Source of the DNA: Candidatus Magasanikiibacteriota bacterium
Lineage (GTDB): Bacteria > Patescibacteriota > Patescibacteriia > Magasanikbacterales > UBA922
Direction of reading: 5' to 3'
Assembly: GCA_018651085.1 (NCBI GenBank)
Contig: JABIEQ010000014.1
Span: 161,807-225,806 of the forward strand
Length of the DNA stretch: 64,000 nt
Shown here: positions 2,390 through 53,390 of the stretch, piece by piece
Numbering within the stretch: position 1 is the first letter of the stretch
Layout of the letters: each line of letters starts with the position of its first letter
Program-made: the position numbers and the translations under genes
The notes under the pieces: generated by a model
What the model saw: only the letters and a program-made list of their open reading frames with translations
Told to the model about the DNA's origin: nothing
Databases searched by the model: none

Positions 2390-3502
2390 CTACCACCAAA
2401 TTAATCCTCGCACAACCACACGATAATACAAACGCATAACGGGGTTCCCAACATAAATAAGTAATGGATTCTTCATTGAAGGATCCTGAAAAAGAATATC
2501 AGCCTTAGCAGCCTTCATAAGCATCCGATCAGTCACCTTATTTTTCTTACGAATGGCTTGAATAAAAGAGCGCTTTTTAAGCCATAGTTTCCAACTTGAA
2601 GGTTTAAGCCAATACGCATAAATATCAAGGCGTTTTTTAAACCAACCACCTTTTAATGCAAAAATAGCAAGTCCTACTTCAAGTGCTAATTCCATTGGAA
2701 TAAGTAAAAGAAGTGTCCGCCACTTAAAAAACATCAACATCACGCCATAGCGATTCCTTTCCATGTAATAAAATTTGGTAATGCTACGGCTAAATTGATA
2801 TTTGTGATAAAACACAGAATCACGGACAAGCACAGTCCGGTACCCAGCACAACGAAGTCGAAAAGAATATTCAAAATCTTCATGATATAAGAAAAAATCT
2901 TCGTCCCAAAGACCATATTCTTGCAAAAGACTCGTTCGCATCATAAGAGCAGCACCACTGGCATATGAAATATCTTTTACAGGAGGAAAATCAAGATCTT
3001 TCATTTTTGTACGATATTCATCACAATAACCAAATCCCATAAAATGAAACGAGTTCCCTGTACTGTTTACAAGATCAGTCTCAGGGTGAAGAAGCATAAG
3101 TGATTGAGAAACACCAATGGTTTTATCTTCCTCCATGACCTTTGCAAGCGGTTCAAGTGCATTTGCAGCTACAAAACCATCATTATTATGAAAATAGACA
3201 TAATCAAAACCTTGGTCAATTGCCCATTTAATCCCTTCATTATTTCCACCAGAAAAACCAAGATTTTCTTTTTGAGCCAAAAGAGTTACATGAGGAATAA
3301 TCCCTTGCTCACTAAGAGGTAATACATGATCTTCAATATATCGAACAGAGGGACCATGCGTTGGATGAGGGTTATCTACAATAATAAACTCTACCTTATC
3401 TCTTGGATACGTCAATTTTTTAAGAGCAGAAACAACATCATCCATGTATGGTTCACAGTGAAAAGATAGATAGACAATAGCTATACGTGGATAATGCTCC
3501 AT
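2390..3502 (-). CDS. Glycosyltransferase family 2.
   Basis: IAIVYLSFHCEPYMDDVVSAL...VEFIIVDN, plus DxD-type GT2 signatures. Confidence 0.7.
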   Translation of the reverse strand: MEHYPRIAIVYLSFHCEPYMDDVVSALKKLTYPRDKVEFIIVDNPHPTHGPSVRYIEDHVLPLSEQGIIPHVTLLAQKENLGFSGGNNEGIKWAIDQGFDYVYFHNNDGFVAANALEPLAKVMEEDKTIGVSQSLMLLHPETDLVNSTGNSFHFMGFGYCDEYRTKMKDLDFPPVKDISYASGAALMMRTSLLQEYGLWDEDFFLYHEDFEYSFRLRCAGYRTVLVRDSVFYHKYQFSRSITKFYYMERNRYGVMLMFFKWRTLLLLIPMELALEVGLAIFALKGGWFKKRLDIYAYWLKPSSWKLWLKKRSFIQAIRKKNKVTDRMLMKAAKADILFQDPSMKNPLLIYVGNPVMRLYYRVVVRGLIWW

Positions 3503-3507
3503 ACAAT

Positions 3508-4350
3508 TTATATTTTATATCGGACAAATTTGTGCTTCCCTCGCCACTTCCAAATATATTTACACCAACTCGCAAGATGTAGTCTTGCTGTTTTATTCTT
3601 AAGCAACGCACGAAATATACCAGGAACCTTAGAAGAAGCTCGAGCATGGACATGCTCAATAACAATATCATGAACATAGTAAACTGGCCAGCCGGCATCC
3701 CACATCATATGACACCAATCACAATCTTCAAGATACAAAAAATATCGTTCATCAAAAAAACCAAGATCATCAACTACTTCTTGTCGTACAATCATAGCAG
3801 CACCAAGCACCCAATCTACAGGGCGAGTATCCATATGATCGAAATCTTTCATCTCTAATCGATCAGCATATTTCTTCGCAATGGCATACTTTTTTTCAAA
3901 ATTGAGATGCTTCAATGGTTTAACTAACATTGAAGAAAGATCAAACCGATAACACGAATATTGGAGTGTCCCATCAGTATTGAGCAACTTAGGACCAATA
4001 CAACCAATATGTGTATGCTCATCCATAAAACGGATAAGTCTTTCAATGGTTTTACTATCTGATGGAATAATTGTATCACGGTTAAGTGCAAAATAATATC
4101 GTGAAGGTGTATGAGTAAAACCTATGGTATTAGCCTTCCCAAAACCAACATTACCACCACAATCAATATAATGGACACCAGGAAATGCTGTAAGCGCTTC
4201 TTTTATATTATCAACATTTTCTGAATTATCACACACAGTTATTTGTATATTAAACGAACAATCCGAAATATCTTCATAAATAGAAGCAATCGCACGAAGG
4301 ATATCATCCTTCATAAATAAATTTACAAATACGATAGTGATGTCTTTCAT
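3508..4350 (-). CDS. Glycosyltransferase family 2.
   Basis: ITIVFVNLFMKDDILRAIASI...VCDNSEN. The likely start is the internal Met (MKDITIV), which avoids overlap with the upstream GT2. Confidence 0.65.
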   Translation of the reverse strand: MKDITIVFVNLFMKDDILRAIASIYEDISDCSFNIQITVCDNSENVDNIKEALTAFPGVHYIDCGGNVGFGKANTIGFTHTPSRYYFALNRDTIIPSDSKTIERLIRFMDEHTHIGCIGPKLLNTDGTLQYSCYRFDLSSMLVKPLKHLNFEKKYAIAKKYADRLEMKDFDHMDTRPVDWVLGAAMIVRQEVVDDLGFFDERYFLYLEDCDWCHMMWDAGWPVYYVHDIVIEHVHARASSKVPGIFRALLKNKTARLHLASWCKYIWKWRGKHKFVRYKI

Positions 4351-4361
4351 ATGTATTTTTA

Positions 4362-5426
4362 TCATTTCCACCAACGACGAATATCTCGCCAAGAACGTGT
4401 CCGTGTTTTTATAATAGCCTTACGTTTCTCCTTAATATCCTTTCTCCCTGAAAAAAGCTCAAAAAAACCTCGGAGAACAGCTCTATCAAACAAAATAAAC
4501 CATATACACTTTTTTATTTCATACCATATAATAAAAGGAAAATCAAGAAGTATATTCTGCCAATACATGTTTTTCCATAACGTACGAAGGTGATTTTTAT
4601 AACTATGATATTTAACCCACGATGATTGTTCTCGTTTATTTTTTGCAGCTCCTCTATCATCAAGCCCTTTTGGACCAGCACCAGACCGATCGTGATGAGA
4701 CACCACATCAAGAAGTACATATGAATGATACCCAGCAGAAAACAGACGATATGCTAAATCGACATCCTCCTTATATGAATGGTACGTTTCATCAAGAAAT
4801 TGATCAGGAGTAAACTGTACTGACTCAATAGCAGATCTACGAAACATAGGAAGAGCACCAGATACACCAAATACAGGCAACACTCTATCAGAAAAAGAAG
4901 AAGAAAGTTCATTCCAATGATATTTGGTATATTGTTCAATCACACGACGACTACGAAATATTTTAAGCCCCAAAGCATCAACAACATTAGTGAGACTTTT
5001 TTCTATTCCATTTGTTTCTACAACAGGAAAATCCCAACGCATTAGCCGAGGAGATACAGCTGCAGCTTTTTGATTTTTATCAAGAAAAGAGACAAGACGT
5101 TCAAAACACAACGGATCAAGATACATATCTTGATTTAAAAGAAGAAAATATTCAGATGATCCAGCATGAAAAAATAAACGATTATGCCCACCAGCAAAGC
5201 CAATATTATCCTTATGAAACGTAGCATGATGTGGTACGGGAAAATCAGCCAAAAGACCTCGAAGAACAAGCGGTGTTTCATCTTGTGAATCATTGTCCCA
5301 CACAAACAATTCCCAGTCTTTATATGTCTGTGCACGAAGAGAATCAAAAAGATATGGAAGATAACGAACTCCATTCCAAGTAACAAGGTGGACTGATAAT
5401 TTTATAGATGATGTTTCAATTGACAT
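4362..5426 (-). CDS. Glycosyltransferase family 2.
   Basis: LSVHLVTWNGVRYLPYLFDSLRAQTYKDWELFVWDNDSQDET. Confidence 0.7.
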   Translation of the reverse strand: MSIETSSIKLSVHLVTWNGVRYLPYLFDSLRAQTYKDWELFVWDNDSQDETPLVLRGLLADFPVPHHATFHKDNIGFAGGHNRLFFHAGSSEYFLLLNQDMYLDPLCFERLVSFLDKNQKAAAVSPRLMRWDFPVVETNGIEKSLTNVVDALGLKIFRSRRVIEQYTKYHWNELSSSFSDRVLPVFGVSGALPMFRRSAIESVQFTPDQFLDETYHSYKEDVDLAYRLFSAGYHSYVLLDVVSHHDRSGAGPKGLDDRGAAKNKREQSSWVKYHSYKNHLRTLWKNMYWQNILLDFPFIIWYEIKKCIWFILFDRAVLRGFFELFSGRKDIKEKRKAIIKTRTRSWRDIRRWWK

Positions 5427-5429
5427 AGA

Positions 5430-6278
5430 TTATGTAACTTTAGTTCTAAGCCATACAAGAAAAATTCCAATCGGTCGACAAACCGCAATCCACATCCATT
5501 TCCACCACGGTTCCCATTTTTGAAAATACTGGAGCATACTTAAACTAAATGCTTTTTGTTTCCATAAACTCGTATGCTGTTTAAAACTCTGCCCTACATA
5601 ATCGACACAAGTAATAATAGGAGTATACACCACACGATATTTCAAACGCTTCACCTCACGACAAATATCGACATCTTCATACCAAATAAAATACCGAGGA
5701 TCAAATGGCCAACCAAGAGCATCAATAACATCTCGACGGACAAGCATAAAAGCACCTCGTACAGAATCAACATCCTGTTCTTGTGTTGGATCAAAATCTT
5801 TCATGTGATACTTATTGAGTAGAGACGGAAATAAGTGATGCACCTTTAAAAGAAGACACACTTGTTCCCATACACGAGGAAATCGTCTTGGTGTAGCATC
5901 CCAATTAAGCATACCATGCTCGTCAACCAACATAGGGCTTACAATACCAACATCTGTATGAGTATCCATCCAAGAGACTATTTTATCAATACTCAAAGGA
6001 GAAACACGCATATCTGGATTTAAAAAAAGCAAATACTTTCCAGATGAACGCTGATACCCTTGTATATTGGCAGCAGAAAAACCTTGATTTTTTGCATTTG
6101 CAATAAGCAAAATATTTGGAAAATGTTGAGTGACTAATGAGACAGTATCATCAGTTGATCCATTATCAATAATAATTTGTTCATACGTCACATGCTCACA
6201 CCCAGCAAAAACAGAAGCAACCTGTTCTTTAACAAGAGCAGCTGAATTCCATGTAACAGTGATAACAGATACATCCAT
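5430..6278 (-). CDS. Glycosyltransferase family 2.
   Basis: VSVITVTWNSAALVKEQVASV...IIIDNGSTDDTV. Confidence 0.7.
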   Translation of the reverse strand: MDVSVITVTWNSAALVKEQVASVFAGCEHVTYEQIIIDNGSTDDTVSLVTQHFPNILLIANAKNQGFSAANIQGYQRSSGKYLLFLNPDMRVSPLSIDKIVSWMDTHTDVGIVSPMLVDEHGMLNWDATPRRFPRVWEQVCLLLKVHHLFPSLLNKYHMKDFDPTQEQDVDSVRGAFMLVRRDVIDALGWPFDPRYFIWYEDVDICREVKRLKYRVVYTPIITCVDYVGQSFKQHTSLWKQKAFSLSMLQYFQKWEPWWKWMWIAVCRPIGIFLVWLRTKVT

Positions 6279-6280
6279 AA

Positions 6281-6691
6281 TTATATTTGTGTTTTTGAAA
6301 GTTCAGCATCAAGGGTGAGATTATTTCCCTTCCCTGACCGACCATAATCGTCAGAAAGTTTAACAACATCATCAAGATGGTTCGTAGACACTTCAAGGAT
6401 TTCCACATCATCAACTCCTTCAGCTCTATGAATAGTTCCAGGATAAATATCTAATTTTTCTCCAGGACCCAAAATAACTTCCTTTAAATTATTTTCATCT
6501 TCCCCAAGATAAAACTTCACCTGCCCTTTCAATACGTATTGTGTTTCTTTTTTATGTTCATGATATTGCAAAGAGTATCTATGCCCTTTTTTAATATACA
6601 AAATTTTTCCAACATATTCATCTTGAAGAGCAAACCACAATTCTTTTCCCCAAGGTTTCATAATAACACGCATTTCTTTTTGTTCATCCAT
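6281..6691 (-). CDS. Cupin-domain protein (mannose-6-phosphate isomerase type II C-terminal-like).
   Basis: KPWGKELWFALQDEYVGKILYIKKGHRYSLQYHEHKKETQYVLKG is a cupin_2-like signature. Confidence 0.5.
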   Translation of the reverse strand: MDEQKEMRVIMKPWGKELWFALQDEYVGKILYIKKGHRYSLQYHEHKKETQYVLKGQVKFYLGEDENNLKEVILGPGEKLDIYPGTIHRAEGVDDVEILEVSTNHLDDVVKLSDDYGRSGKGNNLTLDAELSKTQI

Positions 6692-6700
6692 AAAAAATAA

Positions 6701-7810
6701 TTATGTAATTGGCGATGAAATAACTCCCCCACCAAGGCACACACCATCTTTATATAATACACCAAATTGACCAGGAACGATTGCTCGTTGAACATCTTTT
6801 GTGTGTACTTGAATCAAATCATCACTATATCGTGTTACCACAACATCTTGAAGTGGTTGCCTATGCCTAAACCGTGCCTTACATGCTACAGGATAATGAA
6901 GATCAACACCACTAATCAAATGAAAGAAAGACAAATATACATCATGTGTGAAAAGCTTTTCACAATCATCATATCCAACGACCAACTCATGCGTATGCGC
7001 TCTCTTTTCTACAACATATAAAGAGCGAGAATCTCCACCTTTATTAATAGAAGAAACATTTCCAAAATGACTTTGACCAATAGTATATAAAGATAAACCA
7101 TCATGCCTACCTATGACTTCATCCGTACCATAAAAAACAATATTACCTGGTGTAAGTGAAATATGTTTTTTTAAAAAATCTTTCATAGAAACATTCCCTA
7201 CAAAACAAATTCCCATACTTTCTTTCTTTTTTGCTGTAGGAAGATTAAAAGAAACAGCAAGTTCGCGCACTCTTTGTTTTGTATACGTTCCTACAGGAAA
7301 AAGTACTCGAGATAATTTTTCTTGATTTAATTGATGTAAAAAATATGTTTGGTCTTTATTATCATCAATACCTTGCAATAGAAAATACTCTTCTCCTTGC
7401 TTTTTCACTTGAGCATAATGCCCAGTTGCAAGCATATCAAATCCAAGCTCCCGAGCTTTATCTAACCAAACACCAAATTTAATATACGTATTACACAACA
7501 CATCTGGGTTTGGCGTATTTCCTGAAGAGTACGAGTCAAAAAGATAAGACAATACATGCTCACGATATTCTTTTGTAAAATCAAATTTCACAATAGGTAT
7601 ACCAAGAGAAGCTGCCACACGAACAGCATCACGATATTCTTCTATCCAACAAGATTCTTGAACAGCAGGATCATCATACATAACCATATACGCAGCAGTT
7701 ACATCATATCCTTCTTTTACAAGAAGAGCCGCAGAGACTGAAGAATCTACTCCACCAGAAAGAGCTATAAGAACCTTCTTTTTTTCTATAGATGTATCAA
7801 AAAACTTCAT
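6701..7810 (-). CDS. mnmA: tRNA-specific 2-thiouridylase MnmA.
   Basis: PP-loop motif ALSGGVDSSVSAALL, plus the conserved central and C-terminal MnmA regions. Confidence 0.85.
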   Translation of the reverse strand: MKFFDTSIEKKKVLIALSGGVDSSVSAALLVKEGYDVTAAYMVMYDDPAVQESCWIEEYRDAVRVAASLGIPIVKFDFTKEYREHVLSYLFDSYSSGNTPNPDVLCNTYIKFGVWLDKARELGFDMLATGHYAQVKKQGEEYFLLQGIDDNKDQTYFLHQLNQEKLSRVLFPVGTYTKQRVRELAVSFNLPTAKKKESMGICFVGNVSMKDFLKKHISLTPGNIVFYGTDEVIGRHDGLSLYTIGQSHFGNVSSINKGGDSRSLYVVEKRAHTHELVVGYDDCEKLFTHDVYLSFFHLISGVDLHYPVACKARFRHRQPLQDVVVTRYSDDLIQVHTKDVQRAIVPGQFGVLYKDGVCLGGGVISSPIT

Positions 7811-32215: not shown

Positions 32216-32968
32216 CTAATTCCCCTTTGTTTTGTTCACCAAGAATTCCTTCTTCGAGACCCTGGCCAAGAGGGTCCAACGGTTTCCGCCCTCTTTCCCC
32301 CAAGAGAACTTTCGGTCCCAGAGAGAAAGGTCACCATAAGCGTCTTGCCTCACCTGAAAGTAACGGTAATATCCGCTACCCAACGGAACCAACGCCCCTT
32401 GGCTCGAGAAGATGGCCTTGCTAAGACCATCGCAGACACTCCCCGTTGCACCTTCATAGCGCAACATAGTTGGCGTCTCCATAATCCATGCGTAGCAGCT
32501 CCGAGTGTCAAACACCCAGACCGACTTGTCGCAAGAGTCGTCGAGACCGTCCTTATCGAGGTCCTGATTAAGATTCCTCTCCATAGGGCAGCTGTCTCGG
32601 TTGTTGGCAAGGCCATCACCGTCGATGTCGTCGTCGCAGGCATCTCCAAGACCATCCACGTCGAGATCTTCTTGATCGGGGTTGGCCACCTTGCGGCAGT
32701 TGTCCCAATCATCGGAGATACCGTCCTCGTCGAGGTCCTCGCAGACGTCTCCCAAAGGGAGCCCCCCGGAGTCACGTTGCATCTGATTGCGGATGTTGGG
32801 ACAGTTATCCCACTTGTCAGGGATGGTGTCGCCGTCGGTGTCCTTCTCCACTTGGACAATGAGGCTCTTCGATGCCGACGGCAGGGTCAAAGTGGCCGGC
32901 GTCGTCGGGAGAGTGCACCCGGACAAGACGATAGCACACGAAAAGATCAGAACAGTTGCGGTACGCAT
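32216..32968 (-). CDS. GC-rich lipoprotein with thrombospondin type 3 (Ca-binding) repeats.
   Basis: Lipobox LSGC. DTDGDTIPDKWDNCP and DEDGISDDWDNC repeats. A GGAGG RBS lies 8 nt upstream of the ATG. GC content is far above the surrounding sequence. Confidence 0.6.
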   Translation of the reverse strand: MRTATVLIFSCAIVLSGCTLPTTPATLTLPSASKSLIVQVEKDTDGDTIPDKWDNCPNIRNQMQRDSGGLPLGDVCEDLDEDGISDDWDNCRKVANPDQEDLDVDGLGDACDDDIDGDGLANNRDSCPMERNLNQDLDKDGLDDSCDKSVWVFDTRSCYAWIMETPTMLRYEGATGSVCDGLSKAIFSSQGALVPLGSGYYRYFQVRQDAYGDLSLWDRKFSWGKEGGNRWTLLARVSKKEFLVNKTKGN

Positions 32969-33330
32969 GGCATAAACCTCCAAGGCTTGCCGGTGTGTGA
33001 ACAAATAAGGGCTAATTACTACACAAAGAAAAAATATGTACTATTTATTCTGTACGTAGTAACCAACTGATAGAATGAACATTTCTCACTATCCCCTTTT
33101 ATAAAAAAGAAATACTGGGCAATGGGGCTGCACACATAAAGCGCGCAGCCCAGTTTCCATAAATACGACATGTATCTGGAACCCCTACTAGGCAAGCCGT
33201 TCGGGGTATTTGTTTTTCTGTCATCTCGCTTTTGCGAGGCATCTTCTTTTTATCGCTAGAATTCCGAGGAAGAAGGTCTCCTCATATAGAAATCACTCTC
33301 ACGGACTATCCGCGAGAACATATCGTAAGC

Positions 33331-34374
33331 TCAATGCTTCGCGATACTCGCCTCCCTGTCGGGGAAGTCGTTCGTCACGCCGAGACCGGTTTCGAGAACA
33401 CTCTGACCATCGAGGGCCAAAACATCCTCACCGTTCTCTTGAAGTTCACCACCAGTGCGGTGAACGGCGTAACGATTCTCGTCGGAGACATCAGAATCAT
33501 TACCGAACTTCACCAAGGATACCATCATGGCCTTCTTACCACCCGTAGACACGTTCCACGTGCCAACGGGACGGTTGTCCTGGCAGCGGCCAGAGACAGC
33601 GAATTCGGCATCGAGGTAGCGGACCACCTCGAGAACCTGGCCATTGGCCTGGGCCTTGTCGCACGACACCATGTCCACGACTCGACGCTCAACACTCAAA
33701 GGAAGCTTGGGCGTCGGGAGACTCGCGAGGAGCTCCGCGTCACCCTCTTCCTCGAAGACGTTGAGGTCGTTGAAGTTGAAGGTTTTCTCCGAAGCCTTCT
33801 TGGCCACAGGAGCAACACCTCGAGTGGACGCGTATGCCTGTGCTTCACGCTCGGCATGAACCTCGGCTTTAGCGCTCACACTCGTAAGGGAAGTGATCGG
33901 CGCCTCGATAACCCGCTTACGCTGCTCGCGCTTCGGGGTATTCTTGACGCTAACTTTCCACCAGTTCGTGACGAGCCGATTTTTCTTATCGGTCGTCATC
34001 TGAGCCGGCCGACCTCGACCACGCTGCGTCTTCTTGACAGCAGCAGGACGAGGATCCGAATCGAAAGTATCTCGATGCCCAAGGGCTTCTGCCAAGAACG
34101 TCTCGATTTCTTCAGCAGAGGGCTCTTGGTTAAGCGCCTCATACACATCGAACTTTTTCGCGGCGGGCGGATCAGCGGCCCGGCGGGCACGCTCACGGCG
34201 GAGTCGCGACTCTTCGAGCCACGCCCCCTCGTTGCGCTTCACGCTTCCACCCTGACTGATCAGATCTCCATCGGTCACACTGAAGGAAGGTCCTCCAGCG
34301 ATCGCTGACGAGATAAAGCTCAGGTTCAGGGCGATGACGATGGCCACGAGGAGAGCGATGTTCGGCTTGTTCAT
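33331..34374 (-). CDS. GC-rich secreted hypothetical protein (347 aa) with a signal peptide.
   Basis: Signal peptide MNKPNIALLVAIVIALNLSFISSAIA. Strong RBS AAGGAGGAATTACC immediately upstream of the ATG. No recognisable domain. Confidence 0.55.
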   Translation of the reverse strand: MNKPNIALLVAIVIALNLSFISSAIAGGPSFSVTDGDLISQGGSVKRNEGAWLEESRLRRERARRAADPPAAKKFDVYEALNQEPSAEEIETFLAEALGHRDTFDSDPRPAAVKKTQRGRGRPAQMTTDKKNRLVTNWWKVSVKNTPKREQRKRVIEAPITSLTSVSAKAEVHAEREAQAYASTRGVAPVAKKASEKTFNFNDLNVFEEEGDAELLASLPTPKLPLSVERRVVDMVSCDKAQANGQVLEVVRYLDAEFAVSGRCQDNRPVGTWNVSTGGKKAMMVSLVKFGNDSDVSDENRYAVHRTGGELQENGEDVLALDGQSVLETGLGVTNDFPDREASIAKH

Positions 34375-37171: not shown

Positions 37172-37465
37172 CTACTTCCCCACACAAGCGAGGGATCGGC
37201 CCTTACGCTCCAGAGTGTCGGGGCATTCAGTCTTACCGCCATCCTGATAAAAGAAACTTTCGTATCCTTTCACCGAGATGCCTTCAGCACAGTGGTACCA
37301 CCGGGTGGTATCATTTTTGTTCATCGTCACTTGCGGATAACTGTCATCCGCACACCTGACAACGATGTGCCCTTGAACAAATCCCATGAAGACTTGCGCC
37401 CCAATGAATAGCGCAAATGCCCCGAGAAAAAAAGCCGTTACCCTCTGAAATAGTGTCACTTCCAA
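37172..37465 (-). CDS. Small GC-rich secreted/membrane-anchored Cys-containing hypothetical protein. Possible TTG start.
   Basis: 97-aa ORF in a roughly 50% GC patch. Hydrophobic N-terminus and five Cys. An AAGGGGG RBS-like sequence lies upstream. Confidence 0.3.
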   Translation of the reverse strand: MEVTLFQRVTAFFLGAFALFIGAQVFMGFVQGHIVVRCADDSYPQVTMNKNDTTRWYHCAEGISVKGYESFFYQDGGKTECPDTLERKGRSLACVGK

Positions 37466-37566: not shown

Positions 37567-38382
37567 TCAATATAAAGATAGGATATCCCCTATTTCAGAT
37601 GTTTCAAATACTGCTATACCAAGCTGACTCAAGCGCCATAGCACACGAGAAGATGGATGCCCATAACTATTTTTTTTTCCTACAGAGATAACCCCTATAT
37701 GGGGAGAGACCGCTTTTAAAAAAGAAACAATAGAAGATGTTTGACTACCATGATGGCCAATATGCAAAATATCTGATGCAAGCTCACTACCGTACTGAAA
37801 TGCGAGATACTCTTCTAATTCTTCTTCCGCATCCCCTGTTATAAGAATATTTGTTCCTGACACAAAGAATTTCATAACAATAGATTCATTATTTTTTCCT
37901 TCAAAAAGAGAAGCATCTTGCCTCAAGGAATAATTTGGATACAAAAAAATAATTGACTCTTCTAAAAAAGACCATGTTTGATATTCTTCAATGATATACA
38001 TTTCAACATCTTTTTCTTCTAACGTATGAAGTAACACTTGCCACATAGCAGAATCACTTTGTGTTCCATTATACACAAAGGTTCCTACATCAAATCGATG
38101 AAGCACATCAATACACCCTCCATAATGATCAAGATCAAGATGCGTGACAATCACATAATCAATATATTTATCATAAAAAGGCATATGCCTCCCAAGTCCT
38201 TCAAGAACCGTAGCATCAATACCACAATCAACAAGAGCTTGTGTTCCATCCTCAAATGTAAACAAACTTGCATCCCCTTGCCCCACATCTAAAAAAACAA
38301 ACGGAGGGACAATACCATCAATAAAAAACACATACAACAATAAAACACAGATACATGAGAAAACAACATACCACTTTTTCAT
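37567..38382 (-). CDS. ComEC C-terminal metallo-beta-lactamase-domain protein.
   Basis: FLDVGQGDASLF and VIVTHLDLDHYGG motifs. Its start ATG overlaps the stop of the upstream ComEC gene (ATGA). Confidence 0.7.
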   Translation of the reverse strand: MKKWYVVFSCICVLLLYVFFIDGIVPPFVFLDVGQGDASLFTFEDGTQALVDCGIDATVLEGLGRHMPFYDKYIDYVIVTHLDLDHYGGCIDVLHRFDVGTFVYNGTQSDSAMWQVLLHTLEEKDVEMYIIEEYQTWSFLEESIIFLYPNYSLRQDASLFEGKNNESIVMKFFVSGTNILITGDAEEELEEYLAFQYGSELASDILHIGHHGSQTSSIVSFLKAVSPHIGVISVGKKNSYGHPSSRVLWRLSQLGIAVFETSEIGDILSLY

Positions 38383-39854
38383 ACTTTCATACACTTTTTC
38401 ATATATAAAAATAATGCACCATAACTTATAGGCACTATCCACCAAGGGACAAATATTTCAATTGAAGCAAATGGAACTGAGGCAAACCATTCAACGACAA
38501 AGACAATATACCGTAACCCAAACCAAGCAATGTATGAAATAACTTCAGCTAAAGGAAAAAATAAAAACGAAAGTACGGTTGATAAAAATCCAATCCCCAT
38601 GATAAAAGGGATAATCCATAACACTAATACATTCACAACGACAGACACAATAGATACTCTTCCAAACTGATACATAATAAGTGGCAGCGTAATAATGGTT
38701 GCCCCAATAGTAGATGTAATACTTTCTCGAATAGTGAACTTTTCAGAAAAAGACAAAAAATACGGTTCAATAAGTGGCACAAGATAAATGAGACCAACCG
38801 TTGCAAGAAAAGACAATTGAAACCCAGCATCCCACACTAAAATAAAGGGATTATGTACTGCCATGATAGTGGCAGTTAAGAGCATCACAAGCATTATCGG
38901 CACTTCCCTACGGTATTGTTTCCCAATAAGGGTAAGCACTCCCATAATTCCAGCTCGGACAACAGAAGCACTTGCTCCTGCAAACACCACAAACAGAAAA
39001 ATAGAAACAATAATAATAGAAAATGAGTGCTTTCGTAAAAAAGACACACGAGAACATGCTTGCAAACAAATTGCCGCAATAAGACTAATGTTATACCCAC
39101 TAATAGCGACAATGTGCGTTACTCCCGTAATACTAAACAACTCCTGCAAAGACCCCAATCCTCCTCTATACCCATAAAGTAATCCTGCCATGAAGCTTGC
39201 ATAGGGCTCATGCCACAAACGATTTACTTGATACGCAATATGATCTTTTACAAAAAAAATAGTTCGAAACAGAAAAAAGCCTTCACGACCATCATGACTA
39301 GATATTGTTGGAAACTCACATATACTAAACACACCAAAACGAGCAAGATACATATCATAACGAAACGTTTCAATTGGTTCAGGTGTTTTTAAATGACACG
39401 ATAGAGTAAGTTTTTCACCATACTCATATCTTGGATATAATCGCGTTTTAAAATACACCCGTCCGTATACAGCTTTATCATTAATTGATGTTACACGTAC
39501 AATATATCGGACACCATTAATTCGCACATCAGGTTCACTTACGACGTACCCATTAATTTCTTGTGTTGAATTGTTATATGAAAAAACATGAGAAAAAGAA
39601 GATAAAGGAAAAGCCACGATGTAACGAACACTCCCCAACAGAAAAAACAATACACATAGACACAAAAATCTCACCTGCTGACATCGCCAGAAAAAAACAA
39701 TCCATAGGGTAGTTGCAATGATGCCAACAAAAAGATATATAACAAATGGCTGCAGTTCAACAAGTGACGCAATAAATACCCCAAAAAGAAAGCAAAAACA
39801 AAACGCAAGAAGCGTTTTGTTTTTGGAATTGACCATGGACGTCAATGCATACAT
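38379..39854 (-). CDS. comEC: ComEC/Rec2 competence-domain membrane protein (DUF4131 plus competence domain).
   Basis: Polytopic protein. LLYGYRGGLGSLQELFSITGVTHIVAISGYNISLIAAI is the competence-domain signature. Confidence 0.75.
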   Translation of the reverse strand: MYALTSMVNSKNKTLLAFCFCFLFGVFIASLVELQPFVIYLFVGIIATTLWIVFFWRCQQVRFLCLCVLFFLLGSVRYIVAFPLSSFSHVFSYNNSTQEINGYVVSEPDVRINGVRYIVRVTSINDKAVYGRVYFKTRLYPRYEYGEKLTLSCHLKTPEPIETFRYDMYLARFGVFSICEFPTISSHDGREGFFLFRTIFFVKDHIAYQVNRLWHEPYASFMAGLLYGYRGGLGSLQELFSITGVTHIVAISGYNISLIAAICLQACSRVSFLRKHSFSIIIVSIFLFVVFAGASASVVRAGIMGVLTLIGKQYRREVPIMLVMLLTATIMAVHNPFILVWDAGFQLSFLATVGLIYLVPLIEPYFLSFSEKFTIRESITSTIGATIITLPLIMYQFGRVSIVSVVVNVLVLWIIPFIMGIGFLSTVLSFLFFPLAEVISYIAWFGLRYIVFVVEWFASVPFASIEIFVPWWIVPISYGALFLYMKKCMKV

Positions 39855-46305: not shown

Positions 46306-46950
46306 TCATTGTGATAAAAAGGACAAAAGGGCTGATACAGTCCTTCCTTCACCAATCTTTCCTGACTCACACATTCCTTTAATCTCATTAAATGGAACAA
46401 ATCGATATTCTTCTATTTCTTCCCCTTCGTCGTGGTCATGTACACCATGATGATCTATAACATTATTTGCCACAATATAATACAAATCCCACTTAACCGT
46501 TGCCCCACAGCCTTTTTTCATAAAAATACGCATGTCAGAAGATTCAAGCTGTGCTTCTTCTTGTAATTCCTTTGCTGCAGCAGCAAGAATAATATCTTTA
46601 TAAACTTCTGTAACAATATATGGCTTATACTCTTCAAATCGATCAAAAACCTTTCCTCCAGGAAGACGCCAATCAAATCCCTCAGTTTCAATTCGAAGTT
46701 CCTTTTGCAAATAAATAGCATTATCTTTTATTGCAATAATTCTTGTTCCTGGTGGACGAACAAATTTCTCAAATGTCATTGACACATACCCACTTCCTTT
46801 ATCTACCAAAACAGGATAATGCACAATGGCCCCAATCTTTCCTTCAGAGAATATATGATGATCCCCATTAGAAATGATTTTAGGTTCTCCCTCTTTTCTT
46901 TGTCGAATAATATCTAGCATACAATAAAAATACGCCCGTGATCCGGGCAT
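46306..46950 (-). CDS. NUDIX hydrolase (ADP-ribose pyrophosphatase-like).
   Basis: LPGGKV...AAAKELQEEAQL Nudix box. Confidence 0.6.
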   Translation of the reverse strand: MPGSRAYFYCMLDIIRQRKEGEPKIISNGDHHIFSEGKIGAIVHYPVLVDKGSGYVSMTFEKFVRPPGTRIIAIKDNAIYLQKELRIETEGFDWRLPGGKVFDRFEEYKPYIVTEVYKDIILAAAAKELQEEAQLESSDMRIFMKKGCGATVKWDLYYIVANNVIDHHGVHDHDEGEEIEEYRFVPFNEIKGMCESGKIGEGRTVSALLSFLSQ

Positions 46951-46955
46951 ATTTA

Positions 46956-47486
46956 CTATGAACTAAATTTTTTGTTATACAAATCTATTGATCGATTCAC
47001 CGCAAAAATAGCAGCATCACGCCCTTCAAACCCACTAATTGAAACCTCTACATTTTGTAACTGCTTATACGTTTCAAAGTAATGACGAAGGGTTTTTAAT
47101 TGATGCTGATTAAGATCAGAGATATCTTTAATATGAGTACACCGTGGATCATTAGCAGGAACACCAATGACTTTATCATCAGACTCTCCATCATCAATCA
47201 TATGCATAATAGCAACAGGTCTCACAGGAACAACAATACCAGGGTGAAGTGGCTCAGTTGTAATCACCATAACATCTAGTGCATCTCCATCATCCCAGAG
47301 TGTCTTTGGAGCAAATCCATAGTCAACAGGATAGGTCTGTGCGCTATACATGACACGATCAAGCATAATCAGCCCGGTATCTTTATCAATCTCATATTTA
47401 TTAAGTGACCCTCGTGGAATTTCTATAATACAGTTAAACTCATCTGGAACATTATCTCCAAGTGGTACATCATGCCAAAGGTTCAT
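46956..47486 (-). CDS. ppa: Inorganic pyrophosphatase.
   Basis: NCIIEIPRGSLNKYEID and DGDALDVMV motifs. Confidence 0.85.
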   Translation of the reverse strand: MNLWHDVPLGDNVPDEFNCIIEIPRGSLNKYEIDKDTGLIMLDRVMYSAQTYPVDYGFAPKTLWDDGDALDVMVITTEPLHPGIVVPVRPVAIMHMIDDGESDDKVIGVPANDPRCTHIKDISDLNQHQLKTLRHYFETYKQLQNVEVSISGFEGRDAAIFAVNRSIDLYNKKFSS

Positions 47487-47639
47487 ATAGTAATAATAAA
47501 ATAAATGACTGATTCCACCGTACTATGTTTTTAGGTAAAAATCAAGACCTCCATTAGATTGCCATAAAGAAATATTTTTGTTACCATCGGCAAGTAACTT
47601 TTTAGTTAAAGGAGGACATACAGCTGAATTTCCATATAT

Positions 47640-47692
47640 TCTGAGAGACAATGTATTTTATCATTACATGGTGCATTACATTGTCTCTCAGA
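47640..47692. repeat. Perfect 16-bp inverted-repeat hairpin (TCTGAGAGACAATGTA / TACATTGTCTCTCAGA) with a 21-nt loop, at the left boundary of GC-rich island 2.
   Basis: Read directly. Confidence 0.6.
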
Positions 47693-47767
47693 AAAATAGA
47701 CGGAACTGATCATTGAAGGGTAATAGCACCCTAAGAAAATCAAATTCCAAAAATTACGGAGGAAGCG

Positions 47768-49006
47768 GTGTCGCACGGAAAAGAACATCACGGTTGGCGG
47801 GGGTTCGTCGTCCAAAGCGACGACAAGGTCCCCTGGATCCTCTGGGGCGTACTCATAGGAATGTTTCTCTTCACAACGGGAGAACTGCTGGGAATGCATT
47901 TCCAGCATTACTTCCACCACGAGATCCCCCATTTCCTCACGAACCACATGGGGATGCTCTACTTCTTCGCCTTTTTGGGTCTTGAGGTCACCATCAAAAA
48001 ACTCAAGGCCGCGGGGAGGTTCGTCATATTTGCCACGATTGGCGGTATGATCATCCCGCCACTCTGCGCCTACGCACTGACCCAGAACTTCTACATCGCT
48101 CTTGGGGCTTGTGCCACAGACGTGGCCTTCAGCCTCGGCGCGTGGAAGATGGCAAAGGGTACGCGAGAAGACGGCCTCAAGTTTGTCTACACGGCCCTTT
48201 TGATCCTCGCTGTTGGCGACGATCTTGGCGGCGTGATGATGCTCGCGGCCTTCTACGCCACGGCAGTGACGGGAGGATGGTTGATCTTCGGACTCATGAA
48301 CATGATCTTCTCCTACGCCTGCGGGGAAAAAGGAGAGTTCACCGTCAAGTGGGTTCCCATGAACCTCTCAGGAGAAGAACTCACTGAGTGGAAGGCAACG
48401 AAGTTCAACGTGCTTATTGAGAAGAAGTGGTTCTGGATCCTGTTTGCAGCCGCGAACTGTGGAATCATGTGGGCTGCTGGCGTCGAATGGATTCTCGGCG
48501 CTTGCCTCATCTTCATCTTGGCCCCTGACAAGGTCAAGGAGGAGTTGATCCACATGATGAAACCCTTCATTCCGATCATCCTGTTCTTCTTTGGTGGCGT
48601 GAACGGCGCTATCAACGTGTTCGACCTCAACAACTGGGGATGGATCACTGCGGGTTCCGCTATCGGTGGCTTTGGCGGAAAAATCATCGGCATCTTTGGA
48701 GGAGGGATGCTTGGAAGATGGCAAACCAAGAAAAAGGACCCCAACAACGACTACGCGAACATCCCGACAAGAAGAATCGCGGCCTTGGCCCTGTTTGGCG
48801 CAGCCAACGGGACCGTTGCCATCTTCTTTGTCAGCATGGGAGCCGCCCGTGGTTTCATCGAGGCTGGAGACGCCAAGCAAGCAATTCTCGGCTACTTCCT
48901 AACCGTGGGGATTGTCTACGGGCTAACCTTCATCGGGAATCTCGTTGATTTTTTCGGTGTGAAAGCCGAAGAGATCGAACTCAACAGTCAACCAGCCACG
49001 ACGTAA
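47768..49006 (+). CDS. nhaA: Na+/H+ antiporter NhaA (GC-rich, probably foreign). GTG start.
   Basis: GACATDVAFSLGAWKMAKG and LLILAVGDDLGGVMMLAAFY match NhaA signature regions. A GGAGG RBS lies 6 nt upstream. High GC. Confidence 0.8.
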   Translation: MSHGKEHHGWRGFVVQSDDKVPWILWGVLIGMFLFTTGELLGMHFQHYFHHEIPHFLTNHMGMLYFFAFLGLEVTIKKLKAAGRFVIFATIGGMIIPPLCAYALTQNFYIALGACATDVAFSLGAWKMAKGTREDGLKFVYTALLILAVGDDLGGVMMLAAFYATAVTGGWLIFGLMNMIFSYACGEKGEFTVKWVPMNLSGEELTEWKATKFNVLIEKKWFWILFAAANCGIMWAAGVEWILGACLIFILAPDKVKEELIHMMKPFIPIILFFFGGVNGAINVFDLNNWGWITAGSAIGGFGGKIIGIFGGGMLGRWQTKKKDPNNDYANIPTRRIAALALFGAANGTVAIFFVSMGAARGFIEAGDAKQAILGYFLTVGIVYGLTFIGNLVDFFGVKAEEIELNSQPATT

Positions 49007-49112
49007 ACGAAGCAAGGGAGGGAGCAAGATGCTCCACTTCTAAAAAAAGTCTGATATGGAAATTCAGCCCCTTGCCTTGATACCAAAAACTCTTTGATAT
49101 CAAGGTAAGTAA

Positions 49113-49138
49113 AAAGACAGCTTTATGCTGTCTTTTTT
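49113..49138. terminator. Rho-independent terminator.
   Basis: aaaaaGACAGCtttatGCTGTCtttttt. Confidence 0.65.
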
Positions 49139-49151
49139 GGTATACATTTTT

Positions 49152-50075
49152 TTATTCCTTCTTCGCTCGAATAATATATCCTTGACTCTCAATCCATCGC
49201 CCAATAGTAAGCATTTCAATTAATCCATAGAGTTCTACCACTGCAGTAGAAAATGGATGTAACTTTTTTTTGATAAACAATAATACTTTACTCACTATAC
49301 GAAGGACAAAAAATCTTTTTTCTTTAGAAAAAGCATCTTGAAATTCATCCGGGTGTGCAAAAAACTTTGCCCAAAAAATACTATACATGTGAGTTATCGT
49401 AAACCCAGCATGAGAAAAAAGTTGTTTCAATTTTTTCTTTGAATACAAAGAAATATGAAATTCTTTATGCGGATCAATGTTACAATCTCGATTAAAAAGA
49501 TATCGACGAATAAACGCATGCTTTCCAAGTTTTGATTCACTAAACATTAAAGATAAACCACCTGGAATAAGTACTCGATGAATTTCAGCTAACCATGAAG
49601 AAACATCCTCTACATGCCCTAATACATCTGAAGCATACACAACATCAAAATATTCTTTTTGGTACGGCATATTCACTCCGTCATACCATTTCACTTGTGG
49701 CCACACCCCGTATTGTTTTATTTTTTTCTTCGCAATATCAAGTTGAAGTCGCACCACATCAAGACCATGTACTTCAACACCACGCCCAAAAAGTTTTTTC
49801 AAATCAACAATCGTTGCCCCTGTACCACATCCAACATCAAGAATACGAAATGGTTCTTGAAGCCGCACTCGTTTACTTACACCTCGATTCTTCTTTTTAA
49901 AGGCACGATAAATAAACCAATACAACACACATTTTTTGGGATAAAAAACCAATTTCAAAAGCTCAGTAAATTTTATGGTTGCATGAGGGAATAAAGGGTT
50001 CGTATCCCAAATTTCAGCCCCACCTTCACTGTGCACTCCCCAACCAAGCGTTGATTGTATCTCTTTTTTCTTCAT
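49152..50075 (-). CDS. Class I SAM-dependent methyltransferase.
   Basis: ILDVGCGTGATIVDLKK motif I. Confidence 0.6.
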   Translation of the reverse strand: MKKKEIQSTLGWGVHSEGGAEIWDTNPLFPHATIKFTELLKLVFYPKKCVLYWFIYRAFKKKNRGVSKRVRLQEPFRILDVGCGTGATIVDLKKLFGRGVEVHGLDVVRLQLDIAKKKIKQYGVWPQVKWYDGVNMPYQKEYFDVVYASDVLGHVEDVSSWLAEIHRVLIPGGLSLMFSESKLGKHAFIRRYLFNRDCNIDPHKEFHISLYSKKKLKQLFSHAGFTITHMYSIFWAKFFAHPDEFQDAFSKEKRFFVLRIVSKVLLFIKKKLHPFSTAVVELYGLIEMLTIGRWIESQGYIIRAKKE

Positions 50076-53220: not shown

Positions 53221-53292
53221 GTCGCCATCGTCTAGTGGCTAGGACACCGGGTTCTCATCCCGGCAACAGGAGTTCGATTCTCCTTGGCGATA
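53221..53292 (+). tRNA. tRNA-Glu (anticodon CUC).
   Basis: Manual fold. 7-bp acceptor stem (1-72 is a G-U wobble). D-arm GUCU/GGAC. Anticodon stem CCGGG/CCCGG with loop UUCUCAU. 4-nt variable loop. T-arm AGGAG-UUCGAUU-CUCCU. Discriminator A. CCA is not encoded. Confidence 0.8.
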
Positions 53293-53311
53293 CATAGACA
53301 AATTTACAAAT

Positions 53312-53385
53312 GTCAGAGTAGCTCAGTTGGTAAGAGCGTAGGATTCATAACCCTAAGGTCGGCGGTTCAATTCCGCCCTCTGACA
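53312..53385 (+). tRNA. tRNA with anticodon CAU: elongator Met or lysidine-type Ile2. It is not an initiator, since it lacks the 3xGC anticodon stem.
   Basis: Manual fold. Perfect 7-bp acceptor GUCAGAG/CUCUGAC. D-arm GCUC/GAGC. Anticodon loop UUCAUAA. T-arm GGCGG-UUCAAUU-CCGCC. Discriminator A. Confidence 0.8.
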
Positions 53386-53390
53386 CAAAA

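Follow-up and report, generated by a model that had tools for sequence, protein, structure and literature searches.

Is a gene whose third codon positions and start site look foreign necessarily a recent arrival? Outliers in the GC content of third codon positions (GC3) or in codon usage are routinely read as recent horizontal transfer, and in the amelioration framework of Lawrence and Ochman compositionally atypical islands are reportedly taken as such. The question is raised here by a stretch of 64,000 nucleotides (the window) from contig JABIEQ010000014.1 of a Candidatus Magasanikiibacteriota bacterium, in which a divergent gene of the NhaA fold of Na+/H+ antiporters (47768..49006, + strand; 412 aa, GTG start, TAA stop, GC 0.54, GC3 0.71) forms a GC-rich island. 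An earlier note, made from the sequence alone, had taken the foreign-looking composition as a mark of recently imported DNA. This did not hold: the excess of GC3 and the Shine-Dalgarno (SD) motif are family-wide, the amino acids are adapted to the host, no close donor was found among the homologues, and signs of mobility are missing at the locus. The best explanation as a whole, which we regard as probable though by no means certain, is that of a working, divergent NhaA antiporter that was gained laterally long ago and whose GC3 and SD signature is a maintained family trait.

Composition and Translation Start of the Antiporter Gene

According to GC profiles of 100 and 30 nt, the island extends over 47755..49045, that is, over the SD motif, the coding sequence (CDS) and ~35 nt past the stop codon. 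Its edges are sharp. Averaged over 100 nt, the GC content rises from 0.33 to 0.59 at ~47750 and is back to 0.34 by ~49050, and the non-coding flanks of the gene are AT-rich and host-like up to the SD motif and again from ~35 nt past the stop. The open reading frame (ORF) and its GTG start were re-read exactly as the earlier note had given them. The GC3 of the gene is 0.709 compared to a mean of 0.237 (standard deviation 0.035, range 0.13-0.32) in the 51 other ORFs of the window, so that the proposed bias of the third codon position was confirmed, and the comparison with neighbouring genes that the note had suggested made the gene an outlier at z = 13.4. C occupies the third position in a fraction of 0.445 of its codons, compared to 0.092 in the host, and its relative synonymous codon usage (RSCU) is negatively correlated with that of its own host (r = -0.46). 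The codon boxes ending in a pyrimidine (NNY) are dominated by C (TTC 0.70, TAC 1.00, AAC 0.94, GAC 0.83, ATC 0.78), and G-ending and GC-rich four-fold codons (CTC, GCC, ACG, AAG) are likewise raised. GC3 is even along the length of the gene and independent of residue conservation. An Akashi-type test for accuracy selection on this gene gave no signal, the conserved residues being without enrichment of preferred codons.

The start site is equally atypical. A GGAGG motif at 47758..47762 (+) precedes the GTG with a spacer of 5 nt; the motif had been predicted correctly, and only its distance, given as 6 nt, needed correction. No SD-like motif was found within 22 nt of the start codon in 50 of the 55 window ORFs, and GGAGG itself stands before just two genes, that of the antiporter and one in the other GC-rich island of the window, which makes the contrast with the neighbours stronger than had been claimed. 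Judged from the window ORFs (the 16S rRNA lies outside the window), the host genome is one that initiates translation nearly without SD motifs. Parcubacteria often lack the anti-SD motif, and bS21 is frequently absent from Parcubacteria and Peregrinibacteria alike (PMC9297842).

Long ORFs also run on the minus strand of the gene. A conserved antisense gene was rejected here by reasoning only, these ORFs being the codon-aligned antisense frame, which is open because TTA, CTA and TCA are avoided; three such codons still break it. An rRNA or other RNA gene behind the GC-rich islands was rejected as well, since Rfam at gathering score gave only two tRNAs in the window. These are tRNA-Glu(CTC) and tRNA-Met(CAT), which lie side by side at 53221-53386 (+). 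The presence of tRNA-Glu(CTC) means that this very AT-rich genome retains a tRNA dedicated to GAG, a G-ending codon.

A Rare and Divergent Branch of the NhaA Fold

The product matches the NhaA family (TC 2.A.33) profile PF06965 (Na_H_antiport_1) with 51.7 bits compared to a gathering score of 23.5, its residues 45-376 covering positions 45-362 of the 374 of the profile. The best of the TIGR00773 and NCBIfam PRK models, the TIGR00773 equivalog, gave 42.4 bits compared to a cut-off of 254, and only over the N-terminal half. On these profile scores the protein is a distant NhaA subfamily and not an equivalog. The motifs GACATDVAFSLGAW and AVGDDLGGV were found; in the alignment, their counterparts in E. 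coli NhaA are the regions of T132-D133 and D163-D164. Across 26 aligned homologues, ATDVA, GDD and GGxxGK do not vary. T117-D118 thereby corresponds to T132-D133 of E. coli NhaA, D151-D152 to D163-D164, and K305 to K300. Moreover, the family profile matches the E. coli and Salmonella NhaA structures at ~1e-15.

The AlphaFold2 model (predicted local distance difference test 87.9, predicted TM-score 0.84) has helix breaks at 116-118 and 344-347, which correspond to the broken transmembrane helices TM4 and TM11 of the NhaA fold, predicted here as crossed discontinuous helices. In a Foldseek search of the PDB, 11 of the top 13 matches were NhaA (TM-score 0.58-0.71), the best reaching 0.63-0.71 at a probability of 1.0. 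The assignment to NhaA made from the signature regions was therefore borne out by profile, motifs and predicted fold alike. The window protein shares with E. coli and Salmonella NhaA (1ZCD, 4AU5, 7S24, 7A0W) this predicted fold with its discontinuous TM4 and TM11, as well as the T-D of TM4, the D-D pair of TM5 and the lysine of TM10. However, it is only 18-21% identical to them, belongs to a separate, very small clade, and its model lacks the periplasmic TM1-TM2 beta-hairpin that forms the dimer interface of E. coli NhaA: there are no strands between the first helices, and the sole beta-hairpin (strands 190-195 and 209-214) lies between the fifth and sixth membrane helices.

The TM10 lysine of NhaA (K300 in E. 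coli) is a salt-bridge partner and is linked to electrogenic exchange of 2 H+ for 1 Na+. By analogy, we infer electrogenic Na+(Li+)/H+ antiport on the aspartate pair: the putative antiporter would most likely exchange 2 H+ for 1 Na+ on D151/D152 at the crossing of TM4 and TM11, with K305 as the salt-bridge partner. Both activity and direction being inferred in this way, it would expel Na+ from a marine Magasanikbacterium of Saanich Inlet.

The family is small. A word-indexed search gave 26 strong matches (184-402 bits, 37-51% identity) followed by a gap down to 41 bits, and an exhaustive search with a hidden Markov model gave 19 clusters at E <= 1e-30 among 1.84 billion cluster representatives, after which canonical NhaA followed at <=88 bits. 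Pattern scans of genome and metagenome collections returned mostly canonical NhaA motifs, with four and one relevant loci, respectively. Judged from these searches, the protein is a member of a rare, divergent clade seen mostly in genomes of the candidate phyla radiation (CPR). The named members come from Candidatus Peribacter, Candidatus Peribacteria and Candidatus Altimarinota, with one metagenome-assembled genome (MAG) labelled Gammaproteobacteria. Placed among these relatives, as the earlier note had proposed, the window protein forms a lone deep branch with 49-51% identity at most, and the named homologues belong to other CPR phyla. The proteins of marine Candidatus Peribacter and Altimarinota MAGs (MBT4119473.1, MGE3278972.1) are 40-51% identical over the full length and carry the same invariant motifs, and their genes show the same raised GC3 and SD-like motif in SD-poor hosts; they differ in that their hosts are Peregrinibacteriota or Altimarinota and in their genomic neighbourhood.

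The host of the window is a different one, of the Parcubacteria group by its labels. At NCBI, the proteins that match its methyltransferase and one protein of the other GC-rich island at 100% identity are labelled Candidatus Magasanikbacteria, and nearly all named ones among the hundreds of methyltransferase homologues at 50-60% identity carry the same label. The reduced genome that had been supposed is one of the CPR. No paper on antiporters of Magasanikbacteria or Peregrinibacteria came up in a literature search.

GC3 Excess and SD Motif Across the Family

DNA was obtained for 12 family loci (most of their hosts without a taxonomic label), and host GC3 was taken from 5-50 neighbouring ORFs of each. 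The GC3 of the gene was well above that of the host in 10 of the 12 loci, whose host medians range from 0.25 to 0.58. Given as gene and host median, the values were 0.71 and 0.25 in the window, 0.73 and 0.31 in L013, 0.61 and 0.38 in L003 (the same as L008), 0.65 and 0.44 in L012, 0.68 and 0.45 in L002, 0.59 and 0.47 in L023, 0.67 and 0.51 in L014, 0.80 and 0.53 in L009, and 0.68 and 0.58 in L006. In the GC-rich Peribacteria locus L007 they were 0.74 and 0.72, and in the outgroup L015, which is 37% identical, 0.38 and 0.40.

The GC3 of the gene did not follow that of the host (rho = +0.26, not significant), while other measures of the same genes did. I/(I+V) was correlated with host GC3 at rho = -0.98 (p = 2e-7), FYMINK/GARP at rho = -0.77 (p = 0.009) and the GC content of first codon positions (GC1) at rho = +0.76 (p = 0.011); K/(K+R) gave rho = -0.50, which was not significant. 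The most AT-shifted protein of the family (I/(I+V) 0.59, K/(K+R) 0.77, GC1 0.52) was that of the window, whose host is the most AT-rich. The excess was also kept in both members of two syntenic pairs, namely L002/L003, where the antiporters are 49% and the flanking orthologues 31-83% identical, and L006/L012, where the antiporters are 58% and Fic 72% identical. Synonymous sites were saturated in every pair of genes, identical codons at identical residues being as frequent as expected at random. It follows that the GC3 of each gene is its own equilibrium and does not come from a shared recent ancestor, and site-specific codon conservation, whether by a conserved RNA structure or by recent shared ancestry, was likewise rejected. 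Furthermore, an SD-like motif precedes 10 of 11 family genes compared to 12 of 133 host genes (Fisher p = 8.5e-9). From these comparisons of sequences, high GC3 together with the SD motif is best described as a family trait held at third positions and at the initiation site, and not as the residue of a donor.

A Variable Slot and the Question of Recent Transfer

The antiporter gene lies between ppa, which encodes a soluble family-I inorganic pyrophosphatase (46956..47486, -; PF00719, 185 bits; host-like GC3 of 0.25), and a gene for a class I S-adenosylmethionine-dependent methyltransferase (49152..50075, -), the anchor of the PBP-HU-rny-truB-methyltransferase synteny and the source of the Candidatus Magasanikbacteria label. 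A NUDIX hydrolase gene (46306..46950, -) follows ppa. In L021 and L022, the two nearest relatives available, whose methyltransferases are only 58-60% identical, the order PBP-HU-RNase Y-TruB-methyltransferase … IF2 is kept, and no NhaA-like gene was found in the slot between methyltransferase and infB of either. The comparison with relatives lacking the gene, which the earlier note had advised, thus gave conserved flanks around a differing slot. A membrane H+-pyrophosphatase (H+-PPase) lies between methyltransferase and infB in both relatives (region 8456-10441 in L021 and 3377-6104 in L022, compared to 46306-47486 (-) in the window), and the two enzymes are 86% identical to each other. In L022 the H+-PPase is followed by a NUDIX gene whose product is 58% identical to that of the window and orthologous to it; in L021 no NUDIX gene was seen. 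On this synteny, a soluble pyrophosphatase seems to have taken over the site of the ion pump in the window lineage.

The rest of the slot differs as well, with a DUF4096 transposase fragment and a Na_H_antiport_3 gene in L022 and a 446-aa membrane protein in L021. The DUF4096 fragment (2593-3150, -; N-terminal part of a transposase of insertion-sequence type; GC3 0.62) lies between methyltransferase and H+-PPase, the position held by the antiporter gene in the window. The Na_H_antiport_3/DUF1646-type antiporter gene of L022 (6910-8346, -) is next to infB and has a GC3 of 0.82 in a host of ~0.40. The gene for the 446-aa membrane protein of L021 (10645-11985, -), likewise next to infB, has no Pfam match, a GC3 of 0.64 and a GGAGG motif. 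Homology of these two GC3-rich genes was considered and rejected, only a weak local match linking them, so that they are not clearly homologous. Remnants of the slot genes of the relatives (h192/h199, H+-PPase, DUF4096, Na_H_antiport_3) were looked for in the window, and none were found.

As the contents of the slot differ among relatives, it is a variable one that has repeatedly held ion-handling genes, and the patchy distribution of the antiporter makes its lateral gain plausible. Lateral acquisition at some time is likely on the evidence of relatives without the gene and homologues in other phyla. This part of the claim of lateral gain survives; its recency does not. The lineage probably gained the gene laterally, though not recently, into the variable slot between methyltransferase and infB.

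A recent transfer would mean that a GC-rich, SD-using donor supplied the gene and that its GC3 and GGAGG motif have not yet decayed. Much at the locus fits. The gene is a sharp outlier in GC3 with a codon usage opposed to that of its host, which otherwise almost lacks SD motifs, and its RSCU is correlated with that of the GC-rich Peribacteria locus L007 (+0.57) and of the other GC-rich island (r = 0.55). The gene is missing from the syntenic slot in both L021 and L022, and the slot of L022 holds a transposase fragment; the same basin yielded a Peribacter MAG with a family member (L008, SI048_bin16); the flanks of the L013 gene are GC-rich too; and the canonical NhaB gene beside the antiporter gene of L006 shows that antiporters move into CPR genomes. 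The window host also encodes ComEC for DNA uptake. ComEC/Rec2 is present there as two overlapping ORFs (37567-39854, -), of which 38379-39854 carries Competence and DUF4131 and 37567-38445 a metallo-beta-lactamase domain; the gene is possibly split or frameshifted, and the uptake channel is encoded either way.

Nevertheless, we consider a recent transfer unlikely. The window protein is the most AT-adapted of the family, with I/(I+V), FYMINK/GARP and GC1 following the host while GC3 does not. A recent GC-rich donor is excluded on this ground because synonymous sites should ameliorate before replacement sites, and the opposite was seen. The closest homologue is only 51% identical, with synonymous sites saturated against all relatives, and an excess in the same direction occurs in most hosts of the family. 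In addition, the non-coding flanks are already host-like up to the SD motif, no direct repeats (target-site duplications) flank the island, no tRNA adjoins it (the nearest are 4 kb away), and no mobility genes lie between ppa and the methyltransferase. The gene thus resembles islands of the Lawrence-Ochman type in being a sharp GC3 and codon outlier that is missing from the site in relatives and has homologues in another lineage. It differs from them in being inverted, its replacement sites and GC1 fitting the host and its third positions not, in its lack of mobility signatures, and in sharing the same offset with most family members.

Local GC Bias, Expression and Assembly as Explanations

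A non-selective local GC bias could come from a recombination hot spot with biased gene conversion or from a locally different mutation spectrum. Like any neutral process, it would raise GC3 evenly over the gene without regard to residue conservation, as was observed, and the variable neighbourhoods of the family genes fit it too. However, such a bias would also shift GC1 and the I-to-V and K-to-R swaps towards GC, and these follow the AT bias of the host. It would not stop at the SD motif and ~35 nt past the stop codon, beyond which the non-coding DNA of the window is AT-rich. The offsets in GC3, from +0.2 to +0.47, are far above the effects of bacterial gene conversion, for which GC shifts of a few percent are reported. 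We regard this explanation as very unlikely.

Still more doubtful is ordinary translational selection, in which the gene would be very highly expressed and use the optimal codons of the organism. The dominance of C-ending NNY codons has the usual direction for it. But the typically abundant proteins encoded in the window have a host-like GC3 (HU 0.33, thioredoxin 0.30, IF2 0.22), the G-ending and GC-rich four-fold codons are raised as well, and conserved residues show no surplus of preferred codons. GC3 is host-like also in MraY, ComEC and H+-PPase, other membrane proteins of the same genomes.

An assembly chimera, in which a fragment of a GC-rich organism had been joined into the contig, would explain the sharp composition steps at both ends, and it is refuted for practical purposes by six independent contigs from different samples and pipelines (L001, L016-L020) that agree across both junctions. 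One of them, 1,641 nt long and from another JGI sample, matches 47442-49082 at 100% identity. The five others (from NCBI, Logan, ENA and JGI) agree at 99.99-100% identity and keep the order methyltransferase, antiporter, ppa as far as they reach. The methyltransferase was found on 23 contigs, and the antiporter gene adjoins it in 6 of 6 places among the matches listed, within contig reach. The population of the window is essentially clonal, with no strain lacking the gene seen among those contigs. The concern about misassembly at the junctions is thereby removed.

Probable Maintenance of the Signature and a Possible Translation Dialect

Old lateral gain with a maintained family trait remains our preferred explanation. 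Third positions and the initiation site would have been held while first positions and amino-acid usage drifted towards the AT-rich host, and our preferred guess is that they are maintained by selection acting on the mRNA or on the initiation of translation.

Several points weigh against this explanation. The correlations with host GC3 carry no correction for shared ancestry, though the sister pairs go the expected way, and the DNA comes from only 10-12 loci, with host values from as few as 5 and at most 50 ORFs per locus. The synteny of L002 and L003 lies in a variable rluA-dcd stretch, where independent insertion or replacement in place may have occurred. In L013 the GC-rich DNA reaches ~150-250 nt beyond the CDS, as that of an imported fragment would. 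The Akashi-type test was without signal, and the host-like GC3 of MraY, H+-PPase, ComEC, HU and thioredoxin leaves no obvious functional rule for the genes affected. Weak selection on ~400 synonymous sites would be hard to sustain if CPR populations are small. Finally, with the window protein as a lone deep branch in the family comparison, any direction or date given for a transfer would be tentative.

A wider proposal is that SD-poor, AT-rich CPR bacteria keep a few envelope genes in a separate "translation dialect" of SD motifs and G/C-ending codons, held by selection over deep time. It would extend the codon and start-site patterns described above, and we think it quite unlikely to be right. 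Three or more families of Na+/H+ antiporters would belong to the set, and possibly certain secreted proteins too, the proteins themselves drifting with the AT bias of the host. A far less likely form of the proposal is that dialect genes would be tuned to the translation machinery of the host cell of the symbiont.

Palindrome, Hairpins and Leader

The earlier note had bracketed the gene with a hairpin and a terminator. The divergent ppa/nhaA-like intergenic region is 281 nt long and holds a near-perfect palindrome (47639..47693) whose perfect outer arms (47639-47655 and 47677-47693) lie within a 26-nt, 85% palindrome. The perfect inverted repeat of the note was thus present, with arms of 17 bp and not 16 bp and limits of 47639-47693 and not 47640-47692. 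As RNA the palindrome folds at -29.5 kcal/mol (z = -9.0 compared to shuffles). It was rejected as a canonical terminator, for want of a U-run after it on either strand, and as a repeated element, either a miniature inverted-repeat transposable element (MITE) or a repetitive extragenic palindrome (REP), since it occurs as a single copy in the window. A promoter-like site (AGGACA, 16 nt, TATATT; 47613..47640, +; 9/12 matches in a consensus scan) overlaps its left end. The scan was weak, with 5 such sites in the region compared to 2.7 expected by chance, and it hints at best that a transcript from this site would begin inside the left arm.

At E <= 10, the Rfam matches of the window leader were no more than chance resemblances of its hairpin to miRNA and snoRNA models of no relation. 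A riboswitch or known leader RNA was rejected, with no Rfam match in the window leader and none above gathering score in ten related loci. Li+ and Na+ riboswitches (nhaA-I and DUF1646 motif RNAs) precede cation-transporter genes, and the antiporter gene of the window likewise has a long structured leader with a very stable hairpin; it differs from them in that its leader is a simple palindrome that has no Rfam match and is single in the window. The palindrome in the divergent ppa/nhaA region is most likely the stem-loop of a 5' leader of ~120 nt or an operator.

Two hairpins lie between the convergent antiporter and methyltransferase genes, with a joint fold of -33 kcal/mol (z = -9). The first (49071..49109) has a stem of 12-13 bp, longer than the 8 bp that had been read. 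The second (49111..49137) resembles an intrinsic terminator for both directions (A5-GACAGC/GCTGTC-T6), its stem GACAGC/GCTGTC enclosing a 5-nt loop and being followed by T6 on the + strand and T5 on the - strand, so that a U-run is present on both. It corresponds to the strong terminator placed at 49113-49138 in the note, with the difference that by its structure it would work two ways and that it was not flagged by a simple terminator scan. To judge from its form, it most likely terminates both convergent genes. Leader and terminator structures would account for the hairpins flanking the antiporter gene better than insertion scars would.

Other GC3-Rich Genes

On the Candidatus Altimarinota contig L006, the NhaA-like gene is directly preceded by a canonical NhaB gene (5002-6453, +; Pfam 687 bits) with a GC3 of 0.83 in a host of ~0.58. 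In L013, a gene with M23 peptidase and Golvesin_C domains (5979-7037, +; GC3 0.71) lies 1.6 kb from the NhaA-like CDS (3101-4327); two tRNA genes are upstream, and the host is AT-rich.

The other GC-rich island of the window encodes two secreted-looking proteins. The gene at 32216-33004 (-) encodes a 262-aa protein with thrombospondin type-3 repeats (GC3 0.68), and that at 33331-34374 (-) a 347-aa protein with no Pfam match, a GC3 of 0.65 and a GGAGG motif. A search for a donor of this island found none, the 347-aa protein being an ORFan without a homologue but itself among 5.8 billion proteins. In addition, a patch of GC 0.50 at 37172-37465, with a 97-aa ORF without a Pfam match, lies upstream of a 515-aa gene rich in thrombospondin-like repeats.

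Meaning for CPR Bacteria

The antiporter is an ordinary function of a known kind, and the unusual part is its decoupled codon and SD signature. An outlier at z = 13.4 fails as a recent transfer once amino-acid make-up and relatives are checked, and composition-based transfer calls in CPR genomes may be systematically misled for some classes of genes. A rare NhaA-fold antiporter together with a soluble pyrophosphatase stands where relatives have an ion-pumping H+-PPase, and one of them another antiporter as well. This contrast bears on the handling of Na+ and H+ by ultra-small symbionts entering sea water. If selection indeed holds the signature, this would be an uncommon instance of synonymous selection on particular genes, in bacteria thought to offer little room for it. 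If there is a translation dialect, it would point to a specialised translational regulon, for instance of mRNAs that are read only with a free anti-SD or that resist AU-directed RNases.

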